Source: Candidatus Pelethosoma merdigallinarum
Lineage (GTDB): Bacteria > Bacillota_I > Bacilli_A > RF39 > UBA660
DNA length: 64,000 nucleotides
Assembly: GCA_018716065.1 (NCBI GenBank)
Contig: DVKJ01000017.1
Span: 2,031 to 66,030, forward strand
Direction of reading: 5' to 3'
The notes under the pieces: generated by a model
Databases searched by the model: none
Told to the model about the DNA's origin: nothing
What the model saw: the letters and a program-made list of their open reading frames with translations, nothing else
Part shown: positions 1-35,301 of the stretch, piece after piece
Layout of the letters: every line of letters begins with the position of its first letter
How positions within the stretch are numbered: position 1 is the first letter of the stretch
Position numbers and translations under genes: made by a program

Positions 1-304
1 CTCCATCCACTAAAGTCTCATTATCTACCTCTTCGTAATAATTATCTTTAATGTCTTGGAAAGTAGAGGCGATTTTTTGCAAAGCTTCTGCTTGTTCTTG
101 ATCCACTTGTTTTGCTATAATCTTAGTTCCAAAAAAATAACCCATAAATAAACTAACTACGCATGTAATCACAACAAGGCCTAACGTATCACTTGTTTTA
201 AAGAAAGGAATATTATCATTCTTATTTCTTTTTTTATTACTTTCTTTTTTCTTTATTTTGGTTTCTTTCTTTTTCTTCTCTTTTGTTTCTTGTTTTTTCT
301 CCAT
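1..304 (-). CDS. Partial CDS (N-terminal part; 3' end lies beyond window start); Lys-rich N-terminus followed by a transmembrane segment; hypothetical membrane protein
   Basis: ATG (cat on plus) at 302..304 preceded by AGGAGG RBS on minus strand; open frame runs to position 1; not in ORF track because truncated. Confidence 0.4.
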   Translation of the reverse strand, partial: MEKKQETKEKKKKETKIKKKESNKKRNKNDNIPFFKTSDTLGLVVITCVVSLFMGYFFGTKIIAKQVDQEQAEALQKIASTFQDIKDNYYEEVDNETLVDG

Positions 305-409
305 AGGGAAACCTCCTCTTTTTATTATATCATGTATAATATATACTATGAAAAGAAAATCATTGGAATAGACACCATTTTACGAAAAAGAGATTACAAA
401 AGTAATCTT

Positions 410-952
410 CTATTCGCTAATACGTTTTAATTCATTTACAATTTCTTCTTTGCCTTCAAAATATTCTGTCAATTGATGATCTTCTACTTTTATTAAGGTG
501 TCTCCTTTGATTCGTAAATCACTTATCGTATCAATCTCAAAATTACTTTCATCCGCTTTATATTTTTGATTAAATGGACTGGTAATATCAGAAGTATAGA
601 CTTTTAAAGCATCTTCTTTAGAAGTATAAGCACTTTTATATACTTCGTAAACTCCTTGAGTTTGACCACTTTCAGGATCAGATACTAGAACATAGTAACT
701 TCCATCTGATTGTTCTAATAGTGTTCCTAAAATAATTTCATCATATTGAATCACTGCAGCTTCATCTTGTGTAGAAGTAGTACTGTCTTCACTACGATCA
801 ACAAATTGAGAAATAATATAGAAAGCACCAAATAATACTACGATAACAACAATAAAGATGATTAGTTTCTTTACTTCCATATCGCCAGAAGTTGCTGTTT
901 CTACGAAGTTTGTTTTTTGTTTTCTTGTTTTCTTTTTTGACATAACTATCAC
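410..952 (-). CDS. Hypothetical membrane-anchored protein (single N-terminal TM, acidic extracellular domain)
   Basis: ORF track; hydrophobic stretch LIIFIVVIVVLFGAFYII; no recognisable catalytic motif. Confidence 0.45.
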   Translation of the reverse strand: MIVMSKKKTRKQKTNFVETATSGDMEVKKLIIFIVVIVVLFGAFYIISQFVDRSEDSTTSTQDEAAVIQYDEIILGTLLEQSDGSYYVLVSDPESGQTQGVYEVYKSAYTSKEDALKVYTSDITSPFNQKYKADESNFEIDTISDLRIKGDTLIKVEDHQLTEYFEGKEEIVNELKRISE

Positions 953-993
953 CTAGCCATTATTATAGCATATTTTTATGAAAAGTGGTAGTT

Positions 994-1992
994 TTATTTT
1001 CCTACAGGTAAAGCACTAATGGAACGGGCAACATTTAACAATTCGTCAGATTTCATCGTTTCAGATACAACATAATATTCTACTCCATTACTAATCCAAG
1101 TAATAGAGGTATCCGAAACGGCAGCTACACTATCAGCCATTATTTCTGGATCACCATACATAGGAATCGTTTCCATATCTTCAGAATAACTAGATGTCTC
1201 TTGCACAAGCATAAAAGGATTATCCCCATCAAACGTTAAAATAATACGTTCACCATCTTCTTTATCTACTTTATCTTGGCTCGTGAGTGTTGTATTTTCT
1301 GGAATATACATTGGATATATAATATCTTCTAGTTTACTGGTAGGTTTACTAATTTCTATGTTTTTTCCACTCATATTCGTTTTTAATGAAAAATAACTAT
1401 CTTTAAATGTAGAATCCATATCTACTTCATCAAACTTCATCGTAATCATAGCTCGGTCTTCTTTATTATATACTACTACTTTTTGAATATTTAATTTTTT
1501 GTCAAACGTAATTTCTTGTTTTACTAATTCTGGATTACTAGAATAATTAACGGTTGTCGTAAATAGATATCCCGATTTGGTTTCTTTATAAGTGTGTTCC
1601 TTATCATTTTCAATATCTTTTAAAATAGGCTGTAATAAATAGCTTTGTGAGTTGTTATATGGCCATTCGCTTTGAAATTTAAAACTCTTATTTAAAGATG
1701 GTGTTAAAACGAATATTCCTTCACTGTTTCGTAATATAATTTGTTCATGATTATTGGTTTTGTTTTTTAAACTTACTTTAAAATTTTCTTCTTTAGAATA
1801 AGATGCTTCTACATCATAAGTGTAAGTATCTTCGTTATTGACAATTTCTAAATCACCAGTTAAATGATAACCTTTTGTTTCTTCAATCTTTTTTGTTAAA
1901 TCTTTCAAAACATCTTGTTCATCTTTCTTACCGCAACCACACATCAATAAACTTCCTATGATTAGGATACCAATGAAAATCTTTCTCTTCAT
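994..1992 (-). CDS. Putative lipoprotein of unknown function
   Basis: Signal peptide ending in lipobox-like LLMCGCG; no other recognised domain. Confidence 0.5.
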   Translation of the reverse strand: MKRKIFIGILIIGSLLMCGCGKKDEQDVLKDLTKKIEETKGYHLTGDLEIVNNEDTYTYDVEASYSKEENFKVSLKNKTNNHEQIILRNSEGIFVLTPSLNKSFKFQSEWPYNNSQSYLLQPILKDIENDKEHTYKETKSGYLFTTTVNYSSNPELVKQEITFDKKLNIQKVVVYNKEDRAMITMKFDEVDMDSTFKDSYFSLKTNMSGKNIEISKPTSKLEDIIYPMYIPENTTLTSQDKVDKEDGERIILTFDGDNPFMLVQETSSYSEDMETIPMYGDPEIMADSVAAVSDTSITWISNGVEYYVVSETMKSDELLNVARSISALPVGK

Positions 1993-2108
1993 AAATTCAC
2001 CTCTTTATTTTCATTTCAATTTATTATATTGCAAAAAAAGTACAAATATGAATGAATAAAATAGAAATTTCTGGTTATTCTAATACTGATATTAGAAAGG
2101 AGAATATC

Positions 2109-2312
2109 ATGGAAACAATACAAAAAATTGCTTTAGTATTTACCATTATTGGTGCCCTAAACTGGGGGCTTATTGGATTATTTGATGTAGATCTAGTAGC
2201 TACTCTATTTGGTAGTATGTCTATGCTTTCTAGGGTAATTTATACGATTGTAGGAATTGCTGGTCTTATCAATATCGGGATCTTCTTATATCATTTCGAC
2301 GAAAAAAAATAA
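2109..2312 (+). CDS. DUF378-family small membrane protein
   Basis: Motif ALNWGLIGLFDVDLVATLFG typical of DUF378; ORF-track start 2052 is upstream; ATG at 2109 has an AAGGAG RBS and gives a ~67 aa product typical of the family. Confidence 0.55.
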   Translation: METIQKIALVFTIIGALNWGLIGLFDVDLVATLFGSMSMLSRVIYTIVGIAGLINIGIFLYHFDEKK

Positions 2313-2314
2313 CG

Positions 2315-2335
2315 GTTTCCCGTTATTTTTATTTG
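2315..2335. terminator. Bidirectional intrinsic terminator between convergent DUF378 gene and cdaR
   Basis: Hairpin aacgg-tttc-ccgtt flanked by T-runs on both strands. Confidence 0.4.
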
Positions 2336-3681
2336 ACAATTGTAATACTTACTTTCTTCGTTTTTGGTGTATAAACAACTTTTGGATCGGTTCCTTCCAC
2401 TTGAACTTCTACTTCATGAGTTCCCTCTCCATAACCTTTTAAATCAATATATGCGGTAATATCTTCAGCATTAATTTGATTAATAACAGATTCTACACCT
2501 TTTAACGTAACAGAAACTTTGATATCAGATTCACTAACACCTTGTACACTATATCCTTCTGCTAGATTACGAGAAGCAATTTGAACATTATTAACAACAC
2601 GACTTGTTGATTTACCTAAAGTAACATTAACGGTTACATTATTCACACTCATAGATTTTACACCTACAGGTTTTGGTAATTCTAATTTGAATTCGTGATC
2701 CTCTTTTAAACCATTTACATCCAACTCTAGTGGAACATAGTCTAATTCTGATAATACATCTTCACTTCCGTAAACACGAACACGTGTCTCACTTAACTGA
2801 ATATCACTGATTGCTTGACCAAAGCTTAATTCTCCTTTTGGCACAACACGAATTGGAACTTCTTTACTAGGTGATGAAATGACCACATCCGCATTAATTT
2901 TTTCTGGTACAATTTCAACATCTACGACATTTCCTTCGTCGTCAAAAGCTTTTAAAGGAATATCTTTCATCGTAATAGTTCCTTCTTCTTGGGTTGGTAA
3001 TTTTTTGACATCTACTAAAGCTTTAACGGTTGCGACTTCCGCTAATTGGTGTTCCGCACCTTTTACGACTACTTTATCGTTATCAATATTTACTTGATCA
3101 ATAACCAATTTATTATCCAAACTATCTTGATTTAAAATATCTGTCGTTAATGTTTTTGTTTCTGACACTTTTGGATAAATGATAACGGTTGCGACACTTG
3201 GATTTACTTTATACTCAATAGAAGCAAGTGCTTGATTATATTTAATATTAACTTTATGAGTACCTGGTTTTAATCCACTTAAATCCACTGTAATTTCGTG
3301 AGAAGGAGATTGTTTTGCAAAGTACAAATCGGCTTTACGACCAATCAAAGTGACATCTACCGTTTCTGGAAGTCCTTCTACAACGTATGCTTCCTCATTA
3401 TAGATAACATTTACTTTTTGTTCTTTTAATACTTCAGCAGAGTTTTCTGAAAATGATAATACTTTTTGATCTACGATGACAAAGATAAACACTGCGATAA
3501 ATAAAGATACAAATAATAAGGTAGTAGATTTCGATAACCAACCTTCTAACTTTTTACCAAAGTTGGTAAAGTAATCGGTAATTGGTAAAATTAATCTTGT
3601 AATTGGTAAGATAATTTTACGGTCAATAATCTTCCAGAGGTTGCGAAAGAAGATACCAAATTTATTTTTCGGCTTTTTCAT
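2329..3681 (-). CDS. cdaR: CdaR-like regulator of diadenylate cyclase (YbbR-like repeat protein)
   Basis: N-terminal TM plus repeated beta-rich YbbR-like segments; overlaps 20 nt with upstream cdaA, which is the conserved cdaA-cdaR arrangement. Confidence 0.7.
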   Translation of the reverse strand: MKKPKNKFGIFFRNLWKIIDRKIILPITRLILPITDYFTNFGKKLEGWLSKSTTLLFVSLFIAVFIFVIVDQKVLSFSENSAEVLKEQKVNVIYNEEAYVVEGLPETVDVTLIGRKADLYFAKQSPSHEITVDLSGLKPGTHKVNIKYNQALASIEYKVNPSVATVIIYPKVSETKTLTTDILNQDSLDNKLVIDQVNIDNDKVVVKGAEHQLAEVATVKALVDVKKLPTQEEGTITMKDIPLKAFDDEGNVVDVEIVPEKINADVVISSPSKEVPIRVVPKGELSFGQAISDIQLSETRVRVYGSEDVLSELDYVPLELDVNGLKEDHEFKLELPKPVGVKSMSVNNVTVNVTLGKSTSRVVNNVQIASRNLAEGYSVQGVSESDIKVSVTLKGVESVINQINAEDITAYIDLKGYGEGTHEVEVQVEGTDPKVVYTPKTKKVSITIVK

Positions 3682-4504
3682 TTTCTACATCCTCCTCTTC
3701 TTCATAATATGATTGTTCTTTTGGACGTAACTCTTCCAATAACATCATCTTAAATTCGTCTAATGTTAAATTGTAATGAAGAACTCCACCAACAGCAATT
3801 GAGATTCTTCCCGTTTCTTCGGAAACAATCAAAGCTAAACAATCACTTTGTTCAGATATTCCTAAAGCGGCACGATGACGCGTTCCTAAACGCTTACTGA
3901 TTTTCACACTATCACTCGTTGGGAATACAGCTCCCGCACTCGTAATTTGGTCTCCTTGAATAATGACACCACCATCGTGTAATGGATTATTAGGGAAGAA
4001 GATGGAAATTAATAATTCACTAGAAATATCCGCATAGAGCTTACGTGATTTTTCAATATACTCACTTAAACTATTGTCACGTTCAATGACCATAAGAGCA
4101 CCAATACGAGAACGTTTTAAATATTCTACTGCATTCATGATCTCATAAACCATCTTTTCACGTTCATCTACCGTAAGTGCTTTATGACGGCCTAATAGTT
4201 GACTTCTTCCTAATTGTTCCAAAACATTACGAATTTCTGGTTGGAAAATAATAATCAATGCGAGTGGTCCCCACATAATGACATAATCCAACAAGTAAGA
4301 AACGGTTACTAAATTAAAGAAATCACTCACTACTTTCAAGATGATAATCACTAAAATTCCTTTAAACAAAAGAACCATTTTTACATTTTTTCGAATATGT
4401 TTTAAGGCATAATAAATGAGTAACCATACCAATAAAACATCTAATAATTTTCGCGCTAAGATAATAATACTATCAAATGTCACCATATCTCCTCCTTTTA
4501 TCAT
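3662..4504 (-). CDS. cdaA: Diadenylate cyclase CdaA (c-di-AMP synthase), membrane-anchored
   Basis: DAC-domain motifs DGGVIIQGDQITSAGAVFPTSD and RHRAALGISEQSDCLALIVSEETGRISIA; three N-terminal TM helices; true start probably the internal ATG at 4486 (RBS AAAGGAGG just upstream). Confidence 0.85.
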   Translation of the reverse strand: MIKGGDMVTFDSIIILARKLLDVLLVWLLIYYALKHIRKNVKMVLLFKGILVIIILKVVSDFFNLVTVSYLLDYVIMWGPLALIIIFQPEIRNVLEQLGRSQLLGRHKALTVDEREKMVYEIMNAVEYLKRSRIGALMVIERDNSLSEYIEKSRKLYADISSELLISIFFPNNPLHDGGVIIQGDQITSAGAVFPTSDSVKISKRLGTRHRAALGISEQSDCLALIVSEETGRISIAVGGVLHYNLTLDEFKMMLLEELRPKEQSYYEEEEDVENEKAEK

Positions 4505-4557
4505 GTATTACCATTATATCATAATCCAGTTTCAAAAAAAATAGCTTTCGCTATTTT

Positions 4558-5112
4558 TTAAAATTTCCAAATATCATCAGTGTTCTCTTTATTTTCTTCT
4601 GTAGCTACAGCTTCTCCTTGATCTTTTGGTTCTTCTGGAGTTTCTACTGTTTCCTCTACAGGAGCAGGTTCTTCCATTGGCATTGGATCAACATTAGGAG
4701 TTGATTCTTCTACAGCAACTGTTTCTGGGTTAGAAACTGGTTCCGCTTCTGTAGGCTCCACATTTTCAGAAATAAGATCACTTGGTGTTTCAAACGCATC
4801 CATTAAACCATCACTAGAAACTTCTGTCGCGTCTTTCGTATCCGTTTCGACTGGAGTATCTAATTCAGATGGTGTATCTAATGGATTCGTTTCCACATTT
4901 TCATCTGGAATAGAAGGTACTACATCAGTAGACTCTAATTCTGTAACTACATCTTCTTTTTGTTTCTTTTTATCTTTTTTGGCTTTCTTTTCTTTCTTTG
5001 GCTTTTTCTCAAAGTTTGTATTATCCGCAATATATCCAATTAAAGCCATTAATAGAATAACACCAATAATAATAAAGATAATATAGTTGTTAATGATGAA
5101 ATCCATACACAT
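4558..5112 (-). CDS. Hypothetical membrane-anchored protein with Lys-rich juxtamembrane segment and highly acidic Pro/Glu/Thr-rich tail
   Basis: ORF track; low-complexity composition. Confidence 0.35.
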   Translation of the reverse strand: MCMDFIINNYIIFIIIGVILLMALIGYIADNTNFEKKPKKEKKAKKDKKKQKEDVVTELESTDVVPSIPDENVETNPLDTPSELDTPVETDTKDATEVSSDGLMDAFETPSDLISENVEPTEAEPVSNPETVAVEESTPNVDPMPMEEPAPVEETVETPEEPKDQGEAVATEENKENTDDIWKF

Positions 5113-5174
5113 CCTCCTTATTCTTATTCATAACATTATCTTATCATTAAATAACCAATATTACAATATAAATT

Positions 5175-5684
5175 TTAATCATTTGACAAATAATCGGCAC
5201 CTTTAAAAGGTTCTTCACGAAGTAAATCATTATAATCTTGTTGACGAAGTGCTTCATATAAGACAAGTGCGACACAATTAGATAAATTAAGCGCACGTAT
5301 TTTATCATTTGTAGGGATTCGCAAACAATGATCTAAGTCTTGTCTTAAAATTTCTTTAGGAATTCCTGTACTTTCCTTCCCAAAAATAAAATATAGATCT
5401 TCATTGGAATTGCTATAATCAAAAGAACTATGAGGTTTCTTTCCATATCGTGTTAAATAATAATATACCCCTGGATTCTTCTCTTTAAATTCTTCAAAAT
5501 TTTCATACACTTGATAATCACAATGTTCTAAGTAGTTCACCGCACTTCGACGTAAATATTTTTCATCCAAGGAAAACCCTAAAGGTTTTATTAAGTGAAG
5601 TTTCGTTCCGGTTCCCGCACATGTTCGCATAATATTTCCTGTATTTTGAGGAATTTCTGGTTGATAAAGTACGATATGATTCAT
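5175..5684 (-). CDS. trmL: tRNA (cytidine34/5-carboxymethylaminomethyluridine34-2'-O)-methyltransferase TrmL (SpoU/TrmH family)
   Basis: N-terminus IVLYQPEIPQNTGNIMRTCAGTG and ~165 aa length match TrmL; 4-nt ATGA overlap with upstream gene. Confidence 0.8.
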   Translation of the reverse strand: MNHIVLYQPEIPQNTGNIMRTCAGTGTKLHLIKPLGFSLDEKYLRRSAVNYLEHCDYQVYENFEEFKEKNPGVYYYLTRYGKKPHSSFDYSNSNEDLYFIFGKESTGIPKEILRQDLDHCLRIPTNDKIRALNLSNCVALVLYEALRQQDYNDLLREEPFKGADYLSND

Positions 5685-6184
5685 GATTCATTCACCTCAT
5701 AGTGATTAATCATCGTTTTAACATCATTCATGGTAATCGCTGTTGCCGTACGATACAATTGATCTTTCTTTTCGCCATTCTCAATCACAATCATGTTTGG
5801 CTCCACAACTTGATCTAACTCTAACCATTCTTGACTAAATTGAATTTGTTCTTCTTCTGTCATTTTTGACAGATCTAAATAAACCATACGATGTTGTAAT
5901 TCTTCTTCTTTTAAGTAATCTCGCAATTCTTTCTCAAAATTTTGGGTATTCTCAACTTGAGGATTTGATACATAGATAAAAACATTAGGATTTTCTAGTA
6001 AATAATTATCTATTTCATCGAAATTAATTTCGGTAATTGCTTGCGTAACAACCGATGCAGGTTGTAGTCCCTCTTCACGTAAGCGATACCAACGAACAAA
6101 ATAGCCCAAAACAAGACAAGTCGCAATCGCAAGGATAAGCACGATCACATAATTTTTTTTAGGAATCACACGTTCTTTTGTCAT
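5681..6184 (-). CDS. Hypothetical membrane-anchored protein (thioredoxin-like fold without CxxC is possible)
   Basis: N-terminal TM; no catalytic motif seen. Confidence 0.35.
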   Translation of the reverse strand: MTKERVIPKKNYVIVLILAIATCLVLGYFVRWYRLREEGLQPASVVTQAITEINFDEIDNYLLENPNVFIYVSNPQVENTQNFEKELRDYLKEEELQHRMVYLDLSKMTEEEQIQFSQEWLELDQVVEPNMIVIENGEKKDQLYRTATAITMNDVKTMINHYEVNES

Positions 6185-6267
6185 CTACAAATTCCTCCAT
6201 TCTATTTTTATTTTAACATACTTTACTATCCTTTTCAATGTCATTATATGTCGAAAAAAAGAAGATT

Positions 6268-7224
6268 TTACAATTCTTCTTTCGTTTCTACTTCTTCAAT
6301 GGTCACAACGGGAAGAGTAACTCCTTCTTCAGCACATAATTCTTGGAACGTTTCACGAAATTTTGCCAGTTCTTTAACAATACTATCAGGATAAATTCGT
6401 TTACTTGTTTTAATCGCATTGTATACATCTTCTACTGTTACCACCGTTTTATTTTGGAATAAAGCTTGGGAAAAAGCTTGGGTTAATACCGAAAAAGCAA
6501 CATCTGGATACATCGCAGATAATCCATATACTCTCTTATATTCCGAAGTTGCAGAAACAATTGCGGTTACTAACATTTCGGTCACATAAGCATTATATTT
6601 AAATTTAATTCCTGTTTGTTTTTCAATCTTTGGTAATGATCCCATCAAAATCTTTACGGTAGTTGGTTCATCTGGTTCTAAAACTTCAATCTTTTCAAAA
6701 CGACGTAAGAAAGCACGGTCACGAATAACATAAGTGTTATATTCAATAGTTGTAGTCGCTCCAATCGCCTTCACTTCTCCACGATCTAATCCTGCTTTTA
6801 ACATATTTGCCAAATCCATACTACCAGTCTCACCATTACCAATTAACGTATGAACTTCATCAATAAAAATAATCGTTTTCGTGATATTCTTTAATTCTTG
6901 TATTAACAAACTCATAATGAGTTCCTCTTTACCTTGAACTAAGATTTTTCCTACTAATGACGTTGAATTAAATTTTATAATACGATAACCTTTTAAAGCA
7001 TTTGGAACCATATCATGTTGAATTAAATAAGCAAGACCTTCCACAATCGCCGTTTTACCAATTCCTGGTTTACCTACTAACAATCCAGATTTTTCTGGGG
7101 TCAGAAGAACAATAATTAAACGTTTGATTTCTTCTTCACGGGCAATCGCTGGATTGGTGATATATTTCTTTTGTGTCAAATTCTCCCCATAAGTTTCTAT
7201 CACACTAAACGTGTTATCCATCAT
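6268..7224 (-). CDS. Stand-alone AAA+ ATPase resembling the D1 domain of ClpA/ClpB/ClpC
   Basis: LLVGKPGIGKTAIVEGLAYLI Walker A context and IFIDEVHTLIG Walker B/sensor arrangement resemble Clp D1; only 318 aa, with no N domain or D2. Confidence 0.55.
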   Translation of the reverse strand: MMDNTFSVIETYGENLTQKKYITNPAIAREEEIKRLIIVLLTPEKSGLLVGKPGIGKTAIVEGLAYLIQHDMVPNALKGYRIIKFNSTSLVGKILVQGKEELIMSLLIQELKNITKTIIFIDEVHTLIGNGETGSMDLANMLKAGLDRGEVKAIGATTTIEYNTYVIRDRAFLRRFEKIEVLEPDEPTTVKILMGSLPKIEKQTGIKFKYNAYVTEMLVTAIVSATSEYKRVYGLSAMYPDVAFSVLTQAFSQALFQNKTVVTVEDVYNAIKTSKRIYPDSIVKELAKFRETFQELCAEEGVTLPVVTIEEVETKEEL

Positions 7225-7233
7225 AGTATCCCT

Positions 7234-7650
7234 CTATTCTTTAATATAGCCATTGTCTTTCAGTTTATTTACAATATACTCATAATCTTTCGATCCATCA
7301 ATGCGGTTAAATTGTGGATCTTTTTCTTCCCCATCTTCTACAAAAACAGTAGTTGGAGTTCCTGTAAAACTAAATTTATTATTCAATTTAGATAATTCAA
7401 TATCTGTCAAATTATATATATCAATATAATAAATCGTTACACCATATTTATTTACGACATCAGTCATAGTTACTTTGTAACTCGCACAATGAGAACATTG
7501 CCTAGATCCCATTACTAGAACAAAGTCTTCTTTATTTTCAATCATTGTTTGTAATTTACTATAGGAAACTTCTTGATAAGGTTCTTTCGTTTTACTGTTA
7601 CAACCTACAAAAAGCACCAAACAACATAAAAGAATAACGATCTTCTTCAT
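7234..7650 (-). CDS. Thioredoxin-fold lipoprotein (extracytoplasmic thiol-disulfide oxidoreductase-like)
   Basis: Lipobox LFVGCNS; CxxC active site SRQCSHCAS. Confidence 0.55.
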   Translation of the reverse strand: MKKIVILLCCLVLFVGCNSKTKEPYQEVSYSKLQTMIENKEDFVLVMGSRQCSHCASYKVTMTDVVNKYGVTIYYIDIYNLTDIELSKLNNKFSFTGTPTTVFVEDGEEKDPQFNRIDGSKDYEYIVNKLKDNGYIKE

Positions 7651-7689
7651 AACTACCTCTTTTCTTTTACAATTATATAATAAATTTTA

Positions 7690-7730
7690 GCAAAAAAAAA
7701 GAGATTTTCTAAGATTCATCTCTTTTCTAA
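7690..7730 (-). terminator. Putative intrinsic terminator downstream of LysM gene
   Basis: Hairpin aagagat...atctctt followed by T-run on minus strand. Confidence 0.3.
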
Positions 7731-7736
7731 GTTTTT

Positions 7737-8225
7737 CTAAGCTTCTTCCATTTTCTCATCACGGACAGCTAATAACTGATCTGGTTGTAAATAAATACGA
7801 TCGTTTTGTAAACGTAATTGTAGTTCATTCGTTTTTAATTGATCCACTACTTTACTAACCGTATCTCCATCTCTTGTAATTAAGAATCTGGTACCAGCAC
7901 GAGGAATCAATATCTCTTCATTTGGATAAATAAATTCTCCATCTCGCATTCCATTTAAACGAATCAAGTCTTCGTAATTACTATTGGTTTTTTTCGCAAT
8001 CGCATACATCGTATCCCCAGGTTGTATCACATAGATTTCGAATAAAGATGTTGTGTTATTGGGAACAATTATTTGCGTATCAATAGATAATGGTTCTAGT
8101 GGAAGAAAACTATTAATTCTTTTTAATTCTGTTGGTGTTGTTTGAAATTCATTCGCAATCGAATTTAATGTATCTCCTTTTTTAACCGTATAGATTTTAT
8201 ACATGAAACTCACCTCTCTAACCAT
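7737..8225 (-). CDS. LysM-domain protein (two LysM repeats)
   Basis: YTVKKGDTLNSIANEF...LKRIN and YVIQPGDTMYAIAKKT...LIRLN LysM signatures. Confidence 0.65.
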   Translation of the reverse strand: MVREVSFMYKIYTVKKGDTLNSIANEFQTTPTELKRINSFLPLEPLSIDTQIIVPNNTTSLFEIYVIQPGDTMYAIAKKTNSNYEDLIRLNGMRDGEFIYPNEEILIPRAGTRFLITRDGDTVSKVVDQLKTNELQLRLQNDRIYLQPDQLLAVRDEKMEEA

Positions 8226-13079: not shown

Positions 13080-13997
13080 TTACCAATTATTTTTAAGTTC
13101 AAAATCTTTTGCATAAGAATAATCTATTATTTCTCCATCCTTCGTCTCAATCCATCCTTTAAATTTGTGCGACCATTCTGTCAATTGAGATGCACTTTTA
13201 TTTTCCAATTGAGATAGAACCTTATCCATAATAATGATTTCTTCTTTTGTAAACAAAGATAAATCACAGTCTTGATTGGGAGTAAATAATATTTTATCAT
13301 CTTCATCATTAGAAAAATTCAAGTAATTTTGGTGAACTAAAAGTTGTAAATATGTCCCTTGATTATCAATAACTGGTCCATAAGTCCCATGAGCATATTT
13401 AAATGATGTTATAGAATGATTCGTTTCCTTGACCGATTCAAAATCAATAGCAAAAAAGTTTTTCATTATTTGCGTTCTGTATAATGCATTGTTTTTTAAA
13501 ACATATAAAAACACATTAATGGTTTTTAAATCTAATTCAGCATTTATTAAATGACATATTCTATAATAATCTTTTTTATCCATTGAATCTTTGTTACTTT
13601 TTAAAATTTCAAGAAATGCATTCTTATTATTTTTAATATTTTTATAAATTAATAAATATTGTTTCCGAGGTAAAGACTCTGCATGTTCATATCTTATAAT
13701 TGTTCTTTTACTCCAACCAAGAGCCTTTGCAAATAATTCTTGTGATAGATTATAAGAATTACGTATTTCTTTTAATTTTTCAAAACTTAATCCATACAAC
13801 TCTAGATATGCATTATAAATGTTATATAATGAATCATTTAGATTGTCATTAATTAATTCGTTTTCACAGACAGGACACTTAAAAACTTGTTCTTCAACAT
13901 GAACTTCTTGATGTCGAACAACATAAGTATTATTTTGTATAGTGCAAAGTGGTTTAACATCTTTATCACAGTTAAAACAATATAGTTTTTTCTCCAT
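13080..13997 (-). CDS. MqsA-like antitoxin (zinc-ribbon + XRE-family HTH) with an extra ~170 aa C-terminal domain
   Basis: Two CxxC pairs (CFNC, CPVC) followed by an HTH (LSQELFAKALGWSKRTIIRYE), matching MqsA architecture; 20-nt gap to upstream toxin-like gene; C-terminal extension not recognised. Confidence 0.55.
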   Translation of the reverse strand: MEKKLYCFNCDKDVKPLCTIQNNTYVVRHQEVHVEEQVFKCPVCENELINDNLNDSLYNIYNAYLELYGLSFEKLKEIRNSYNLSQELFAKALGWSKRTIIRYEHAESLPRKQYLLIYKNIKNNKNAFLEILKSNKDSMDKKDYYRICHLINAELDLKTINVFLYVLKNNALYRTQIMKNFFAIDFESVKETNHSITSFKYAHGTYGPVIDNQGTYLQLLVHQNYLNFSNDEDDKILFTPNQDCDLSLFTKEEIIIMDKVLSQLENKSASQLTEWSHKFKGWIETKDGEIIDYSYAKDFELKNNW

Positions 13998-14017
13998 AGA
14001 TTTCTCCTCCTTTTTAA

Positions 14018-14377
14018 CTAAGTGCTTTCATGAAATGAAATACATATTATACCTCTATTATTCATTGTTAATTTAATATATACTATTTTTTTGTTAATAA
14101 TTTTCTTAAAAATATATACCTCAGAATTCATGTCTCTAGAATAATCTCGGTCTCGATCTATTTTAATGCAATTTTTTATTTCTAAAGAAAGTATATAATT
14201 CCATATATCCTTTTCTTTCATAATCCCAATATCGATTAAGGCTTGTTTCGCGGATATCATTTTACCATTGACGTTTACACTTCGATAGCCAACAAAATAA
14301 CAATTTCCTTTTTTTATTTCTTTTTTACAAATATTTAAAAATGAATTAACACTATCTATATCCAAAGTACTGAACAT
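14018..14377 (-). CDS. MqsR-like toxin (putative mRNA interferase)
   Basis: C-terminal VYIKLTMNNRGIICISFHE resembles the MqsR C-terminus (QVYLKITVIHDVLIVSFKE); ORF-track start 14449 is a TTG inside a promoter; ATG at 14377 with G-rich RBS gives ~119 aa. Confidence 0.5.
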   Translation of the reverse strand: MFSTLDIDSVNSFLNICKKEIKKGNCYFVGYRSVNVNGKMISAKQALIDIGIMKEKDIWNYILSLEIKNCIKIDRDRDYSRDMNSEVYIFKKIINKKIVYIKLTMNNRGIICISFHEST

Positions 14378-14421
14378 TGTTGACCCCCCTACATATGAAC
14401 TCCTTTCATCATTTATATTAA

Positions 14422-14450
14422 TTATATACCTTTTACTTTTTGGTGTCAAT
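14422..14450 (-). promoter_or_regulatory. Consensus sigma-A-type promoter for the mqsR/mqsA-like operon
   Basis: Minus strand reads TTGACA-17 nt-TATAAT (plus-strand tgtcaa 14445..14450; attata 14422..14427). Confidence 0.5.
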
Positions 14451-14826
14451 TGTCACCGTTCATTTTGTTTGAAAATATTTACATATTTATTATACAAATA
14501 CATTTTTATTTTAGACAGTCCATACATGGCATATTTTATCTTCATGATTCTATTAAACATAACATCTAAATTACAAATATAAACATTAGGTAATATTTTT
14601 CTTCTTTATTAATAATCCAATGTTCCTTTCAACATACATTATACATAATTGTTAGTTGAGTGGAACATAAAACAATATATTTTAAAAACAAAAAGAATGT
14701 TTACATATTTTTATGCAAGCATTCTCTTATTTTTAAGGTATTTTGCAGTATTCAATTTTTTTTGCAAACAATGTTAATACTTTTTAATTTTTCTTTAGCA
14801 CTTTTATTTCCTTGTTTTATATAGCT

Positions 14827-17322
14827 TTATGCGTTGCGACCACAACAATTCTTGTACTTTTTTCCACTTCCGCAGGGGCACAATTGATTGCGACCGACCT
14901 TTTTAGCTTTCTTTGTTGGAGTATTCTTTTCTTTACTCTTATCGGTTACAGCTGTACCTTTTGCGACTTGTTTACGTTCCGTATTTTGACGAATTTCTGC
15001 TTTTAATAAGAATAATGTTGTATCACGGTCAATAACATTTAATAATTCATCAAATAGTTCAAATCCTTCTAACGTATAAGCACGCAATGGATTTTCTTGA
15101 GCATATCCACGAAGACCAATTCCTTCACGTAAGTGAGACATCGTGTTGATATGATCCATCCAATGCGTATCAATGACACGTAGAGCAACGGCTTTTTCGA
15201 AATCATTAATAATTTCTACTGGTAATTCTTTAATTTTATGTTCGTATTCTTCAATTACTTTAGATATCAAGAAATCAACGATCTCTTGCTCTTTCATTCC
15301 GTCCATATCATCAATCGTAATTGGTGTATGTACTAAATTACTATTTACCATTTCTAAGATTTCATTACGATCTTTTCCAGAAATTTCTCCATCTTGAACA
15401 TGAGAATGAACTAATTCATCGATGAAATTCTTAATTGTTGATAAAACCGTTTCATGAATAGATTCTTGATCTAGAATTTCATTACGACGTTCATAAATAA
15501 TTTCACGTTGTTGATTAATAACATCATCATATTGTAATAAGTTTTTACGGGTATCAAAGTTATTTCCTTCTACACGTTTTTGGGCAGATTCAATAGAATT
15601 TGATAGCATCTTATTACGAATAGATAGTTCTCCATCAAATCCAACTTTTTGTAATAAAACTTTTGCTTTATCGGTACCAAAACGAACCATTAAATCGTCT
15701 TCAAATGAAACGCAGAATTGAGTTTCTCCTGGATCTCCTTGACGACCAGAACGTCCACGTAACTGATTATCAATACGACGTGATTCGTGTCTTTCTGTAC
15801 CAAGAACAAATAGTCCACCTAATTCTTTGACTTCATCATCAATTTTAATGTCGGTTCCACGACCTGCCATATTCGTTGCGATCGTAACCGCACCTTTTTT
15901 ACCAGCTAAAGCAATGATTTCTGCTTCACGAGCATTATTCTTCGCATTTAATACTTCGTGAGGAATACGTTCCTTTTTAAGCATATTACTTAAAAGTTCA
16001 CTTGCTTCTACCGCAATCGTACCCACTAGTACCGGTTGTCCTTTTTTATGACGCTCTTTAATTTCATTTACAATTGCCTTATATTTTCCAGCTTTTGTCG
16101 CATAGATTAAATCTCCATAATCTTTACGAATAACTGGTTTATTTGTAGGAATAGTAATAACATACATATTGTAAATATCACGGAATTCTTCTTCTTCTGT
16201 TTTTGCGGTTCCGGTCATTCCGGCTAATTTATCATATAAACGGAATAAATTTTGGAACGTAATCGTCGCAAGTGTTTTGGTTTCCTCATTAATTTTAACA
16301 TTTTCTTTCGCTTCTAAAGCTTGGTGTAAACCATCAGAGAATTGACGTCCTTCTTGAAGACGACCCGTAAATTGATCTACGATAATGACACGACCATCAC
16401 GTACAACGTAGTCAAAATCTAATTTCATTCCATAGTTTGCTTTTAAAGCTTGATTAATATGATGAACAAGAGTTGTTTGTTTAATATCGTATAAATTATC
16501 TACATGGAAAGTACGTTCTGCTTCTGCAATTCCTTTTTCATCCAAAGAAACGGAACGTGTTTTCTCATCATAAATATATCCATCATTTTCTTTTAAAGTT
16601 TTGGCAAACTTATCTGCTTGTTGATAAAGATTAGCCGTACTCATATGTCCACCAGAAATGATTAATGGCGTACGTGCTTCATCGATTAACACAGAGTCAA
16701 CCTCATCGATAATAACAAAATTTAATTTACGTTGAACACGATCTTCAGCGCGAACAACCATGTTATCACGTAGATAATCAAATCCAATTTCATTATTCGT
16801 AGAATACATAATATCACAATTATAAGCTTCTCTTTTTTCTTTATGGTTTAAATCGTGATAATTAACACCTACGGTAAGACCTAAGAAACGATAGATTTCT
16901 CCCATCCATTCCGCATCACGTCCAGCTAGGTATTCATTGACTGTAATAATATGAACTCCAAGACCAGATAACGCATTTAAATAAGCAGGCATCGTTTCCG
17001 TTAATGTCTTACCTTCTCCTGTTTTCATTTCGGCAATATTTCCATAGTGAATGGCAAATCCACCTAAAATCTGAACATAGTATGGTTTTTCACCAATCAC
17101 ACGATAAGCTGCCTCACGAGCAACCGCAAAAGCTTCAATTTTAATATCTTCTAACGTTTCACCATTACGAAGACGATCTCTAAACTCTTCTGTTTTATTT
17201 TTCAAGTCTTGATCGCTTAGGTTTGTCATTTCTTCATCTAAGGACATCACTTGATCCGCATATTTTTTAAACTTTTCTAATTCTTTATATTCATGATCAA
17301 ATATTTTCTTTAAAAAGTTCAT
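14827..17322 (-). CDS. secA: Preprotein translocase ATPase SecA
   Basis: Full-length SecA with DEAD-like motor motifs and C-terminal zinc-binding CPCGSGKKYKNCCG. Confidence 0.95.
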   Translation of the reverse strand: MNFLKKIFDHEYKELEKFKKYADQVMSLDEEMTNLSDQDLKNKTEEFRDRLRNGETLEDIKIEAFAVAREAAYRVIGEKPYYVQILGGFAIHYGNIAEMKTGEGKTLTETMPAYLNALSGLGVHIITVNEYLAGRDAEWMGEIYRFLGLTVGVNYHDLNHKEKREAYNCDIMYSTNNEIGFDYLRDNMVVRAEDRVQRKLNFVIIDEVDSVLIDEARTPLIISGGHMSTANLYQQADKFAKTLKENDGYIYDEKTRSVSLDEKGIAEAERTFHVDNLYDIKQTTLVHHINQALKANYGMKLDFDYVVRDGRVIIVDQFTGRLQEGRQFSDGLHQALEAKENVKINEETKTLATITFQNLFRLYDKLAGMTGTAKTEEEEFRDIYNMYVITIPTNKPVIRKDYGDLIYATKAGKYKAIVNEIKERHKKGQPVLVGTIAVEASELLSNMLKKERIPHEVLNAKNNAREAEIIALAGKKGAVTIATNMAGRGTDIKIDDEVKELGGLFVLGTERHESRRIDNQLRGRSGRQGDPGETQFCVSFEDDLMVRFGTDKAKVLLQKVGFDGELSIRNKMLSNSIESAQKRVEGNNFDTRKNLLQYDDVINQQREIIYERRNEILDQESIHETVLSTIKNFIDELVHSHVQDGEISGKDRNEILEMVNSNLVHTPITIDDMDGMKEQEIVDFLISKVIEEYEHKIKELPVEIINDFEKAVALRVIDTHWMDHINTMSHLREGIGLRGYAQENPLRAYTLEGFELFDELLNVIDRDTTLFLLKAEIRQNTERKQVAKGTAVTDKSKEKNTPTKKAKKVGRNQLCPCGSGKKYKNCCGRNA

Positions 17323-18608: not shown

Positions 18609-19211
18609 ATGAGACAAAGATTTGTTAATGGAGGATATCAGTATATTATTCATTATCAACCCAATTTAGACCAATTAACAAAAGATAAAATAAAATATGG
18701 GTTAGAATCCTTCTATATCTTAATTACAAAACTTGTCTTTATCTTCTTCGTTGCATGGATCTTAAATATAGCTTTAGAAGTTCTTATCTTTCTATTTCTA
18801 TATAATATAATTAGAACAACATCTTTCGGACTACATGCGACAAAAAGTTGGATTTGTTTAGTATCTTCTACTTTAATCTTCATCCTCGTACCAATGATGT
18901 GTTTATATGTCGATATTCCAATCAACATAAAAACCATCTTAGGAGTTATAGGAACAATATGTATGATTAAAAATGCCCCAGCAGATACTTATAAAAGGCC
19001 AATAATTAATCCAAAACGCAGACTGATTTATAAAATATTATCTACAATTATTGCCCTCGGTTTAACCATTACTTCGATTTTGCTTGAAAATACATTTTGG
19101 GCAAATTGTTGTATCATGGCATTAGTTGTTCAATGTTTCATGATATCACCTTTAGTATATAAATTGTTTAAATTACCTTATAATAATTATTTAAAGTATC
19201 AACATTCATAG
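18609..19211 (+). CDS. agrB: AgrB-like accessory gene regulator protein B (AgrD-processing membrane peptidase)
   Basis: ~200 aa polytopic membrane protein with conserved His/Cys pair (GLHATKSWIC); followed 42 nt later by an AgrD-like propeptide. Confidence 0.7.
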   Translation: MRQRFVNGGYQYIIHYQPNLDQLTKDKIKYGLESFYILITKLVFIFFVAWILNIALEVLIFLFLYNIIRTTSFGLHATKSWICLVSSTLIFILVPMMCLYVDIPINIKTILGVIGTICMIKNAPADTYKRPIINPKRRLIYKILSTIIALGLTITSILLENTFWANCCIMALVVQCFMISPLVYKLFKLPYNNYLKYQHS

Positions 19212-19253
19212 TTATTTAAACATGTTTAAATATAGTAGTAAAAGGAGGTTAAT

Positions 19254-19376
19254 ATGAAAAGTTTATTTGCATCAATCCTTTCAATGTTTTCTGTAGGATT
19301 AGCGGATATGGGAAGCAGCGCATGTGTATTCGTTGTAATTGATGAGCCAGAAATGCCAGAAAGTTTAATTAAATAA
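19254..19376 (+). CDS. agrD: AgrD-like autoinducing-peptide precursor (40 aa)
   Basis: Not in ORF track. AGGAGG RBS 7 nt upstream; MKSLFASILSMFSVGLADMGSSACVFVVIDEPEMPESLIK has an amphipathic leader, a single Cys followed by a hydrophobic tetrapeptide, and a C-terminal acidic IDEPEMPESL recognition tail like S. aureus DEVEVPKEL. Confidence 0.6.
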   Translation: MKSLFASILSMFSVGLADMGSSACVFVVIDEPEMPESLIK

Positions 19377-19409
19377 ATGATTACTAAAAAATGTAAGGAG
19401 ATTAAACCC

Positions 19410-20732
19410 TTACATTTTTACTTTAATTATTTGTGACATAATATTCTTATAAATGGAAGTTTCACTCACTAAATTTTTTTCCTCTCTTAATATTTCTTTA
19501 GCCAAAGACAATCCATATCCATGTTTTCCACCTTTTGAGGTATAGCCCATTGTCCCCATTTTTTCAATATCTAACATTCCAGAAAAAGTGTTAGAAATCA
19601 ATACACAAAAATATCCTTCTTCCAAGAAAAATTCTATATCAATTTCTTTGTTTTTTAGTTTTTTAGCAGCATCAATTGCATTATCTAAATAAATACCTAC
19701 GATTTTCACGAACTTTCTCATAGTTTGAAAATCTATATTTTTTATTACCTTACTATTTACTTCTCGTCCAATCCTCAAGTCATAGTTAACTTTTAATTGT
19801 TCACATAACAACAGTTTATGATATACTAATCCACGCAATCCTCCTGATGGAATTGATAAAGTTAAACGATAAAGTTGGTCGTTACCTTTTAATTCTTTCT
19901 CAACTTTATCACAATCTTTAAGCATAGCTTCTATTTGTCTTTTCGCTTTGCTATTTCGCTTACTAATCAATCCATTCAATATAATTAAATCATTCTTGTT
20001 TTCATGAACATCTCTTCTATTTTTGTCTATTATATTTTCATATTCTACAGATTTATCTAACAAGCTTTCATACTCTGTCTTTATAAGTATACTCTTATTT
20101 TGTTCTTCCAAAAATTTGCATGTTAAAACTATATAAATACAAATAGTTGCCGAATTCAAAAAGAAAAACTGGATTGATGATAATTGATAATATGCACTAT
20201 AAATAAACAAGTTGGCAACCAACATCAATACTAATAAAATAAAAATTGTAAACTTAACATCAATTTTTTCACTTAATGAAAAAAGCTTACTTTCTAACTT
20301 AAAAAAACAAATTAGTTTAAAAGTTAAACTTGTTATAATTGCTACGCAAGCATTCATCAAAAAAACACCTGTATATTGAATAGCTAACGTCTCTATATCT
20401 ACCGATAATAAATAATATCCCACTATCACAAATACAAACTCTGAAAATATTAATAATAATTGACTCAAAAATACTGCTAATATTTTTGAACGAATATTGG
20501 AATTAAAACAAAAAGAACAAGTCAATAAACTTATAGAAAAAGTGATAATCAATTTTAAACTACTACTAACATACAAATTAATAAATACTGATGATATAAT
20601 TAAAAAGAATATCCAACACCATGATTTTTTTGATTTCCAATTAGGCTTTTCTTTTAAAAACTCTGACCAAATTTTAAAATCGATAAGTGTTAATAAAATT
20701 ACACTTAAAGTAATACTTATGACCTTAATCAC
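19410..20732 (-). CDS. agrC: AgrC-like sensor histidine kinase (HPK10 family)
   Basis: Polytopic N-terminal sensor; C-terminal GHKL ATPase with G-box GGKHGYGLSL; overlaps 8 nt with upstream LytTR regulator. Confidence 0.7.
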   Translation of the reverse strand: MIKVISITLSVILLTLIDFKIWSEFLKEKPNWKSKKSWCWIFFLIISSVFINLYVSSSLKLIITFSISLLTCSFCFNSNIRSKILAVFLSQLLLIFSEFVFVIVGYYLLSVDIETLAIQYTGVFLMNACVAIITSLTFKLICFFKLESKLFSLSEKIDVKFTIFILLVLMLVANLFIYSAYYQLSSIQFFFLNSATICIYIVLTCKFLEEQNKSILIKTEYESLLDKSVEYENIIDKNRRDVHENKNDLIILNGLISKRNSKAKRQIEAMLKDCDKVEKELKGNDQLYRLTLSIPSGGLRGLVYHKLLLCEQLKVNYDLRIGREVNSKVIKNIDFQTMRKFVKIVGIYLDNAIDAAKKLKNKEIDIEFFLEEGYFCVLISNTFSGMLDIEKMGTMGYTSKGGKHGYGLSLAKEILREEKNLVSETSIYKNIMSQIIKVKM

Positions 20733-34572: not shown

Positions 34573-35118
34573 CTATCTTAATTTTATAATAATATTATTA
34601 ATTAGATTATATAATTCTTGATCTGTTAACTTGATACTTTTGGCACATAATTGGCAAGCCATTCCGTGAGTAAAGAAACGAACATCACGATATAATGCTT
34701 CAGCTTTTTCCATAGTTAAATGAAAAGTTTCTTTTGTACTTTCAATCGTCTCACGATTCCAACTTGAGTGTAGTACTTCCTCTATCGTTCTAATTTTTGC
34801 TAAATCAGTCATAAACAAGGCCTGAAATAAATTGGGTTCTTTTTTAGCATAAATCGCATACGCATAACTAATAGTTAATAAATAATTATCTTTGTCAATA
34901 TATTTTTCGATAAATTTTTCATAATGTTTATGTATTTCAGATCTCAAATCTACTTTATAATCGTACAACGTTTTATAATGCCTAAAAATAGGTTGTGTGG
35001 AACAGCCAATAAATTTACCTAAATCACGGGCATTTAACTTATCAATACCATATTTATCAACAAATTTTACACCATATTTCAATAAATCTTTTTTGGTATA
35101 TTTCTCTTTTCTTGCCAT
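34573..35118 (-). CDS. TetR/AcrR-family transcriptional regulator
   Basis: N-terminal HTH (LNARDLGKFIGCSTQPIFRHY); ~180 aa; adjacent to ABC exporter. Confidence 0.7.
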   Translation of the reverse strand: MARKEKYTKKDLLKYGVKFVDKYGIDKLNARDLGKFIGCSTQPIFRHYKTLYDYKVDLRSEIHKHYEKFIEKYIDKDNYLLTISYAYAIYAKKEPNLFQALFMTDLAKIRTIEEVLHSSWNRETIESTKETFHLTMEKAEALYRDVRFFTHGMACQLCAKSIKLTDQELYNLINNIIIKLR

Positions 35119-35301
35119 AAGATCACCTCTCTAATTAAATAACGTTCGTTATTTATTATACATGTTTTTTTTCTTTTTGTCAATATTAAATAACGAATGT
35201 TATTTTTTATTTGAGTAAACTTTTTAATGATTGCTTATACTATAATTTTTTTCTTATATATTCAAATAAAAGATTGAAACAAACTCGTTTCAATCTTTTT
35301 A

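Follow-up and report, generated by a model that had tools for sequence, protein, structure and literature searches.

A probable type II MqsR:PanA toxin-antitoxin cassette on the chromosome of Candidatus Pelethosoma merdigallinarum

Results

Identity and setting of the cassette

Our analysis of a 64-kb window (the whole stretch of DNA that was analysed, 64,000 nucleotides) of Candidatus Pelethosoma merdigallinarum, an uncultured gut Mollicute-like bacterium (MAG), revealed a chromosomal cassette that is very probably a type II toxin-antitoxin system of the MqsR:PanA kind, with a function that we infer from homologues and the literature. The cassette sits between secA and the gene of a PepSY protein, and its neighbours are housekeeping genes (secA, hpf). 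Along the minus strand, the promoter is followed by the toxin gene and, after a spacer of 20 nt, by the antitoxin gene (Table 1). Other bacteria have this architecture too, and there it has been described and tested by experiment (Ernits et al. 2023, PMC10440598); the present cassette is a well-preserved, ordinary example of it.

Table 1. Features of the cassette, with positions counted from the first letter of the window.
Feature	Position	Strand	Evidence
Toxin gene, 119 aa, MqsR/RelE-fold putative mRNA endoribonuclease	14018..14377	-	Pfam, AF2 model, PDB fold search
Antitoxin gene, 305 aa, PanA type: zinc-ribbon + HTH + Panacea	13080..13997	-	Pfam, NCBIfam, model, alignments
Zinc-ribbon domain, residues 1-52, C7/C10/C41/C44, predicted toxin-neutralising part	13842..13997	-	invariant Cys, MqsA alignment
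XRE-type helix-turn-helix region, about residues 67-135	13593..13799	-	Pfam HTH_3, invariant RYE
SocA/Panacea (DUF4065) domain, Pfam match residues 178-282	13152..13466	-	PF13274
Ribosome-binding site AAGGAGGAG in toxin-antitoxin spacer	14004..14012	-	sequence
Shine-Dalgarno-like GGGGGG, 6 nt before toxin ATG	14384..14389	-	sequence; relatives have GGAGG or GGGGG at equivalent place
Leader mini-ORF MMKGVHM-stop	14389..14412	-	sequence, relatives' leaders
Sigma-70-type promoter: TTGACA (14449..14444), 17-nt spacer, TATAAT (14426..14421)	14421..14449	-	12/12 consensus match
16-nt quasi-palindrome GGTGACAATTGACACC enclosing -35 box, candidate operator for antitoxin HTH	14442..14457	-	conservation

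A toxin homologue directly followed by a full-length zinc-ribbon-HTH-Panacea homologue was found in 56 out of 57 genome loci, with toxin identity going down to about 30%. These loci belong to gut Bacilli, Mollicute-like and Clostridia genomes. Their genomic contexts vary, and secA adjoins the pair in only three other loci. Intact genes that stay paired in so many loci and in such varied contexts mark a module that is mobile and actively maintained.

No paralogue of either gene was found in the window, and Rfam and tRNA scans of it gave no matches. Upon search with the PADLOC defence models, there was no match for the toxin, and the antitoxin had only weak HTH-type matches. In PHROGs, the antitoxin matched phrog_10390 (unknown function) and the toxin had no match. 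Phage and plasmid collections contained only distant relatives (identity at most 33%), and an IMG/VR scan with the toxin profile gave no matches.

The toxin

The preliminary description of this DNA had likened the C-terminus of the upstream gene (...KKIVYIKLTMNNRGIICISFHEST) to that of MqsR, and had proposed profile searches for MqsR and MqsA as checks. The likeness to MqsR was borne out. The Pfam profile MqsR_toxin (PF15723) matched the toxin with E=1e-4 and 23.1 bits, which is below its gathering score of 26.2. Close homologues of the toxin (55-85% identical) score 25.1-27.9 bits on this profile, and 4 out of 10 tested reach the cut-off; at E<0.01, the profile was matched by 33 out of 34 members of the toxin family. 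The AF2 model of the toxin (pLDDT 87) has a long N-terminal helix. A Foldseek search of the PDB with this model ranked two E. coli MqsR chains, 3hi2_B and 3hi2_D, first and second (probability 1.00, target TM 0.73-0.74). MqsR 3HI2 was the only strong match, the remaining ones having a TM of at most 0.43. When PDB chains were searched with the toxin sequence, singly and as a profile, no MqsR was found, and the hhalign comparison of the toxin alignment with E. coli MqsR was weak (probability 8%, E=0.004). The link to MqsR was made only by the Pfam profile and the fold search.

Across the 34 diverse homologues that were compared, Y100 and H116 of the toxin never vary, nor do 21 other positions, and K72 is shared by at least 90% of the sequences. 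In the weak hhalign alignment (probability 8%), K72 corresponds to K56 of E. coli MqsR, Y100 to Y81, and H116 to K96, and Q68 of E. coli falls in a gap, with no confident counterpart in the toxin. By this alignment, the position of the catalytic K96 would be taken in the toxin family by an invariant His, not Lys.

The antitoxin

The antitoxin is 100% identical to the NCBI protein 'DUF4065 domain-containing protein [Candidatus Pelethosoma merdigallinarum]'. Similar plasmid proteins of 336 aa are named 'MqsA family' by the NCBI annotation pipeline.

Our analysis agreed with the preliminary description on the length of this protein and on its MqsA hallmarks, namely two CxxC pairs (CFNC, residues 7-10; CPVC, residues 41-44) and then an XRE HTH. 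The four cysteines are invariant in 38 antitoxin homologues. In an hhalign comparison of the antitoxin alignment with MqsA (E=3.8e-6), they correspond to C3, C6, C37, and C40 of the E. coli protein, and the RYE motifs are also aligned, the invariant R102-Y103-E104 of the antitoxin with R101-Y102-E103 of MqsA. The model shows a beta-ribbon with strands at residues 5-40, and metal binding is predicted. The MqsA family profile TIGR03830 matched residues 7-131 with 60.8 bits (E=1.1e-16; model positions 1-126 of 127); the cut-off is 61.8, so this search, like that for MqsR, yielded a match that stays below the cut-off, here by 1 bit. Many of the homologues carry a precomputed PF15731 match. HTH_3 was matched at residues 75-115 with 32.8 bits versus a cut-off of 23. 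With the full-length model as query, the top PDB fold match was MqsA 3GN5 (3gn5_A, probability 1.00, 131 columns).

For the extra C-terminal domain of about 170 aa, said earlier to be of unknown function, a Panacea/DUF4065-like domain had been one guess. This guess was right and the family is a known one: PF13274 matched with 52.2 bits, against a gathering score of 25.7, and the match spans model positions 2-112 of 113. In the structure model, a larger region, about residues 157-300, is confidently folded (pLDDT 85-98), and the degree of conservation of the domain across loci is much the same as that of the N-terminal half of the antitoxin. The PDB fold search with the antitoxin model returned no solved structure for Panacea, all matches being to the zinc ribbon-HTH part. 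With its 305 aa and third domain, the antitoxin departs from the two-domain MqsA type of about 130 aa and is therefore better filed as a PanA with an MqsA-type N-terminus.

Promoter and candidate operator

The perfect promoter claimed in the preliminary description is present, although its coordinates had been given as 14422..14450, off by one. Exact TTGACA-N16-18-TATAAT occurs twice in the window versus 0.23 expected from shuffles, and related loci have kept both hexamers as well as the 17 nt between them. Transcription would start at about 14414.

The sequence GGtGACA(A/G)TTGACACC reaches about 2 bits per position in 37 out of 38 related cassettes; promoter and quasi-palindrome have been kept in these cassettes while the flanks, which are unconserved, diverged. 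One related cassette (L042) has a perfect palindrome, GGTGTCAATTGACACC. No further copy of the quasi-palindrome was found in the window, where a 3-mismatch match inside secA is at chance level. An IMG/VR scan with the 16-mer gave 47 matches out of 48 in unrelated GC-rich coding DNA, and the remaining one (L068) is a true cassette that is cut by the contig end. We regard GGTGACAATTGACACC as a likely candidate operator. A terminator-like hairpin on the plus strand at 14441..14458 is the same quasi-palindrome, and a terminator role was rejected because no plus-strand gene ends there.

Toxin start codon and leader mini-ORF

The ATG at 14377..14375 is the correct toxin start. It had been proposed before together with its GGGGGG, and of the 95 clusters of near-full-length homologues, 75 have a length of 117-121 aa and begin at the equivalent Met. 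A 143-aa ORF with a TTG start was rejected: this TTG (14449) belongs to the -35 hexamer, of which it forms the first half, the leaders of relatives vary from 22 to 68 nt by non-multiples of three, and the homologues start at the internal Met. The TTG had rightly been called probably wrong in the preliminary description, but the fault is that of a longest-ORF track and not of the public annotation; in public records of identical contigs, the toxin is already called with 119 aa.

The ATG-TAG that had been noticed before the toxin was confirmed at 14394..14389, and it makes up the last sense codon and the stop of the leader mini-ORF. Inside the mini-ORF there is an AAAGGAG (14406..14400), 5 nt before ATG 14394, and the last base of the TAG is the first G of GGGGGG. 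Relatives have mini-ORFs that read MKGVNI, MKGVNM, MKGDII, and MKGDIM, each followed by a stop. A start-stop was found in 12 out of 38 leaders and ATGAAAGGAG in 13 out of 38; in the 130-aa toxin forms, mini-ORF and toxin make up one continuous reading frame. The mini-ORF is partly conserved among the cassettes, not universal, and it has a putative role that is considered below.

Discussion

MqsR-like proteins are the commonest known toxin domain beside Panacea antitoxins (PMC8832971). According to Ernits et al. 2023 (PMC10440598), MqsR with a zinc-ribbon-HTH-Panacea PanA has been validated in Bacillus fungorum (MqsR(D2):PanA, WP_099686063.1 / WP_099686064.1) and Lactobacillus rossiae (MqsR:PanA, WP_017263062.1 / WP_017263061.1). 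The validated PanA is described there as 'Panacea; ZBD (MqsA); HTH' (ZBD, zinc-binding domain), the ZBD-HTH construct comprises residues 1-174, and Y97 of B. fungorum MqsR, a tyrosine in the presumed role of Y100, is required for toxicity. Our cassette resembles these systems in its domain order (zinc ribbon, HTH, Panacea), in having the zinc ribbon-HTH in about the first 170 residues with Panacea C-terminal, and in a putative catalytic Tyr near 97-100. It differs in its host, which is an uncultured gut Mollicute-like MAG, and the accessible text of that paper does not mention a -35-overlapping quasi-palindrome or a leader mini-ORF.

The cassette also shares with E. coli MqsR/MqsA (3HI2, 3GN5, 3O9X) the toxin-first order, the MqsR fold, the Cys4 zinc ribbon and XRE HTH with RYE, and, at the promoter, a palindromic DNA element. 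However, the antitoxin has an extra 170-aa Panacea domain compared with E. coli MqsA, and the toxin is 21 aa longer than E. coli MqsR, with its long N-terminal helix and, by the weak alignment, the invariant His in place of K96. N97 of E. coli MqsA, which Brown et al. in 2011 are said to have found in contact with DNA, aligns with Arg98 of the present antitoxin. The operators of E. coli mqsRA are ACCT-N-AGGT palindromes; unlike these, the operator candidate here is a single copy over the -35 box.

The Panacea/DUF4065 domain (PF13274) is common to our antitoxin, SocA of the Caulobacter type VI system SocA/SocB, and Panacea-only PanA (Kurata et al. 2022, PMC8832971). SocA and Panacea-only PanA, whose toxins are unrelated, use it as a ClpXP adaptor or a direct neutraliser (PMC8832971). 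The present antitoxin, in contrast, has a separate MqsA-type domain that is predicted to neutralise, and its partner is MqsR-like rather than SocB-type. MqsR with a PanA partner in Herbaspirillum frisingense was predicted earlier, with DUF4065 proteins as alternative MqsR antitoxins (Kaldalu et al. 2013; Kurata et al. 2022, PMC8832971); this MqsR was toxic in E. coli and was not rescued by its own PanA (PMC8832971).

By analogy with these homologues, the single promoter would give a bicistronic mRNA for toxin and then antitoxin. When free, the 119-aa toxin, a predicted endoribonuclease of the MqsR/RelE fold, would cut mRNA and arrest growth. The four-cysteine zinc ribbon at the N-terminus of the antitoxin would bind and neutralise it, and the XRE HTH would dimerise and bind the 16-nt quasi-palindrome around the -35 box, by which the operon would be repressed. 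The C-terminal Panacea would not be the neutraliser and would more likely modulate or sense the trigger that frees the toxin. The neutralising role given to the zinc ribbon follows the B. fungorum truncations (PMC10440598), in which the zinc ribbon alone or the zinc ribbon-HTH neutralises but Panacea alone or HTH-Panacea does not; Panacea is dispensable there.

The truncations also bear on a different assignment of the two halves, in which Panacea would neutralise the toxin directly, as in Panacea-only PanA, and the zinc-ribbon-HTH would be a DNA-binding regulator only. Direct neutralisation by Panacea is known in several PanAT pairs (PMC8832971, PMC10440598), and the Panacea half here is about as strongly conserved as the N-terminal half. 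However, B. fungorum is the only dissected system with equal architecture and gave the opposite result, and the four Zn ligands are invariant in the antitoxin homologues; we consider such an exchange of roles improbable. Even harder to credit is a SocA-like type VI system, in which Panacea would act as a proteolytic adaptor that passes the toxin to ClpXP with no sequestration. The C-terminal domain does belong to the SocA_Panacea Pfam family, but the partner is MqsR-like and not SocB-like by Pfam and fold, the PanAT pairs that have been tested are type II, forming stable complexes (PMC8832971), and the antitoxin has a dedicated zinc ribbon of the toxin-binding MqsA type, so we give this the smallest chance of all.

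The cassette might also be a domesticated or decayed remnant, with a transcription factor and an inactive MqsR-fold protein that is no longer a toxin. The sub-threshold Pfam score of the toxin, the His at the catalytic K96 position, and the location among housekeeping genes would fit with this, as would the reports that several PanT toxins are non-toxic in E. coli and that one MqsR:PanA pair was unrescued there (PMC8832971). Decay is nevertheless difficult to reconcile with H116, Y100, and the other invariant toxin positions in such diverse homologues, or with two intact genes that remain paired in nearly all loci and in varied contexts, and we think a remnant very unlikely, slightly less so than a SocA-like system.

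On the preferred reading of a working MqsR:PanA pair, one further proposal can be made, which we put forward as speculative and doubtful. Panacea might sense a trigger (for example, a phage product) and make the zinc ribbon release the MqsR RNase, so that the cassette would act in gut Mollicute-like bacteria as a switch for abortive infection. Two unreported controls might be added to this: an HTH operator, present once and fused with the -35 box, and a near-leaderless mini-ORF of 6-7 codons, whose stop overlaps the toxin ribosome-binding site and which may gate toxin translation.

The cassette leaves general knowledge of toxin-antitoxin systems unchanged. It is a clean and well-conserved MqsR:PanA example from uncultured gut bacteria with small genomes, a lineage that has been little studied, and it supplies testable elements, namely the leader mini-ORF and the candidate operator of 16 nt that is fused to the consensus promoter. 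Its more than 50 natural variants could help to address the question of Ernits et al. 2023 as to what role Panacea has when a separate domain neutralises the toxin.

Organisation of the cassette

Two closely spaced minus-strand ORFs lie between secA and a PepSY-domain gene, in a window with a G+C content of 29% and nearly all of its long ORFs on the minus strand. Over the whole 64 kb, Rfam gave no family at gathering score and no tRNA genes were found. An agr-like quorum-sensing cluster (18609..20732) follows on the far side of secA, hpf and a cold-shock gene.

Features of the cassette, its surroundings and a related viral contig
Feature	Position	Strand	Remark
HATPase_c_5 histidine kinase	19410..20732	−	Pfam label from identical contig L001
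40-aa ORF in agr-like cluster			called on identical contig
AgrB	18609..19211	+	Pfam label from identical contig L001
secA	17322..14827	−	upstream neighbour
Quasi-palindrome GGTGACAATTGACACC	14457..14442	−	16 nt, encloses −35 box; 7/8 dyad pairs complementary
Sigma-70 consensus promoter, TTGACA-17 nt-TATAAT	14449..14421	−	12/12 match
Upstream ORF as listed	from TTG 14449	−	143 aa, longest-ORF track
Leader mini-ORF MMKGVHM-stop	14412..14389	−	7 codons; ends in ATG-TAG (14394..14389)
GGGGGG	14389..14384	−	6 nt 5′ of toxin ATG
Toxin ORF	internal ATG 14377..14018	−	119 aa, C-terminus ...VYIKLTMNNRGIICISFHEST
Antitoxin ribosome-binding site AAGGAGGAG	between toxin TAG and antitoxin start	−	sequence
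Antitoxin ORF	13997..13080	−	305 aa, begins 20 nt past toxin TAG
PepSY-domain gene	from about 12887		downstream neighbour
Promoter, leader mini-ORF and toxin start in L068	locus 119..~20	−	runs off contig end

The 143-aa TTG-started ORF was ruled out; its TTG is that of the −35 hexamer. Among near-full-length toxin clusters, 75 of 95 have a length of 117–121 aa with the Met matching ATG 14377 as start, and 119 aa was also called on six public contigs with an identical locus. The leaders between −10 box and start codon vary from 22 to 68 nt among relatives and are therefore non-coding; the ...VTIDT... that opens some over-extended public toxin calls is the palindrome GTGACAATTGACACC translated in frame. 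Judged from these comparisons, the 119-aa start is correct, as the preliminary description had proposed together with its GGGGGG ribosome-binding site; the wrong start arose in the longest-ORF track and not in public annotation.

The toxin

The sole Pfam match of the toxin was MqsR_toxin (PF15723; E=1e-4), whose 23.1 bits fell short of the gathering score of 26.2 bits. The toxin family is tight (111 clusters at 90% identity); PF15723 matched 33 of 34 diverse members, ten members scored 25.1–27.9 bits, on either side of the cut-off, and one that is 85% identical to the window toxin reached 26.3 bits. Sequence searches with the toxin against PDB chains gave no match. AlphaFold, given the family alignment, produced a confident model (pLDDT 87), and Foldseek against the PDB placed both MqsR chains of 3HI2 on top (probability 1.00, target TM 0.73–0.74), all remaining matches having a TM of 0.43 or less. 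The suggested likeness of the upstream gene to MqsR was thus upheld by the fold and by the profile match, sub-threshold though the latter is. By its predicted structure the toxin has the MqsR fold, and it stands at the margin of the Pfam family.

In hhalign the toxin family gave a weak match to E. coli MqsR (E=0.004, probability 8%), which paired E. coli K56, Y81 and K96 with K72 (at least 90% conserved), Y100 and H116 (both invariant), respectively. Compared with E. coli MqsR, the window toxin has an N-terminal helix about 20 residues longer and a putative Lys-to-His change at one catalytic position. In Bacillus fungorum MqsR the tyrosine corresponding to Y100 is Y97, which is needed for toxicity (PMC10440598).

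The antitoxin

NCBIfam TIGR03830 (MqsA family) matched antitoxin residues 7–131 with 60.8 bits, 1 bit short of its cut-off, and Pfam HTH_3 was above cut-off at residues 75–115. C7, C10, C41 and C44 as well as R102-Y103-E104 were invariant across 38 homologues; hhalign against E. coli MqsA (E=3.8e-6) paired the four cysteines with C3/C6/C37/C40 and the RYE with R101-Y102-E103. Two CxxC pairs followed by an XRE HTH, the MqsA hallmarks described before, were therefore confirmed. In the AlphaFold model (pLDDT 92) a beta-ribbon and a helical HTH region are followed by a C-terminal alpha/beta domain that stands apart; the best PDB match of the model was full-length MqsA (3GN5).

SocA_Panacea (PF13274, formerly DUF4065) covers residues 178–282 at 52.2 bits (cut-off 25.7). 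By this profile match the extra C-terminal 170 aa are a Panacea domain: the Panacea/DUF4065 option offered earlier was right, and the stretch labelled "unknown function" belongs to a known family. The antitoxin is 100% identical to the NCBI entry [quoted passage not shown], an organism filed under Mycoplasmatota.

Promoter, candidate operator and leader

The perfect promoter noted before was recovered, one base away from the coordinates first assigned. The 64-kb window has two exact matches to the promoter pattern (spacer of 16–18 nt), where shuffles predict 0.23; the other is TTGACA-N18-TATAAT at 35155..35183 (−), just 5′ of ORF 35118..34573.

The quasi-palindrome around the −35 box occurs once in the window. 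When 37 cassettes were aligned on the −35 box, GGtGACA(A/G)TTGACACC, the 17-nt spacer length and TATAAT were kept at up to 2 bits per position, and neither the flanks nor the spacer sequence showed conservation. The 16-nt form GGTGACA(A/G)TTGACACC was kept in 37/38 cassettes (L007-L045 of the related loci) with diverged flanks, and in one of them, L042, the palindrome is perfect (GGTGTCAATTGACACC). Dyad symmetry reaches further into the flanks in several loci (L036-L039, L023, L030), with bases differing by locus. A cassette-borne palindrome covering the −35 box has the look expected of a site bound by the dimeric HTH of the same cassette, and we infer it to be a candidate operator. E. coli MqsA reportedly reads ACCT-N-AGGT palindromes via N97 and R101 (attributed to Brown and colleagues, 2011). 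In the antitoxin, R101 is retained as R102 and N97 pairs with R98 by hhalign, which fits a different operator sequence.

The ATG-TAG noted ahead of the toxin proved to be the tail of a 7-codon mini-ORF. It opens a few bases at most from the predicted transcription start. One G of its TAG is also part of the GGGGGG, so that the stop sits on the ribosome-binding site of the toxin. Close relatives have the peptides MKGVNI*, MKGVNM*, MKGDII* and MKGDIM*, others have 4–10-codon ORFs ending at or overlapping the toxin start, and 130-aa toxin forms are the mini-ORF joined in frame to the toxin. A start-stop was present in 12/38 leaders and ATGAAAGGAG in 13/38, and distant cassettes have leaders of 22–30 nt with a ribosome-binding site only; the mini-ORF is therefore real but confined to certain lineages. 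One could speculate that it limits or couples toxin translation.

Distribution of the cassette

Scanning one genome per species turned up toxin relatives at 57 loci, the majority in gut MAGs that carry the labels Bacilli, Tenericutes/Mollicutes or Clostridia. A full-length zinc-ribbon-HTH-Panacea homologue is directly downstream in 56 of them, and a contig end cuts the 57th. The two halves of the antitoxin, N- and C-terminal, have diverged about equally fast. Upstream, secA recurs in three other loci only, and PepSY was never seen downstream among the related loci. With such varied neighbours and the pair retained, the cassette behaves as a self-contained module. No second copy was found in the window.

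The toxin profile had no match in IMG/VR. The 16-mer had 48 viral matches there, 47 in unrelated GC-rich coding sequence; the 48th (L068, IMGVR_UViG_3300018495_002055, 1..7817) is a genuine cassette promoter with its leader, located where the contig ends. Tail, tail-fibre and endolysin genes are present on this phage fragment, and from its layout at least one cassette is just past a phage lysis module. Phage and plasmid collections held distant relatives only, including Clostridium estertheticum plasmid proteins annotated "MqsA family". The zinc-ribbon-HTH-Panacea homologue of plasmid pCF009-c of that species (L064, NZ_CP086242.1 20510-24562) is annotated "type II TA system antitoxin MqsA family protein" (336 aa inside a 359-aa ORF). 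No obvious MqsR-like ORF was found within 1 kb upstream of it; it is perhaps an orphan antitoxin, or has another partner.

Relation to known systems

DUF4065 proteins are said to have been predicted as alternative MqsR antitoxins (Kaldalu and colleagues, 2013). The window antitoxin differs from canonical MqsA in not being two-domain, and the pair is not of the SocAB type. Kurata et al. 2022 listed 343 PanA proteins with an HTH and found MqsR-like proteins (n=90) to be the commonest recognisable toxin beside Panacea antitoxins (PMC8832971). Ernits et al. 2023 (PMC10440598) validated MqsR:PanA pairs of B. fungorum and Lactobacillus rossiae, their PanA being "Panacea; ZBD (MqsA); HTH" (ZBD, zinc-binding domain); neutralisation was obtained with the zinc ribbon, either by itself or joined to the HTH, and not with Panacea or HTH-Panacea, and a sensory role was proposed for Panacea. 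In architecture and in gene partner the window pair agrees with these two.

The pair belongs to the already known MqsR:PanA kind, and the cassette is very probably a typical, intact type II toxin-antitoxin module of it; its individual mechanistic steps, drawn from homologues, are less certain. What the cassette adds is modest: a conserved fusion of candidate operator and promoter, and a leader mini-ORF.
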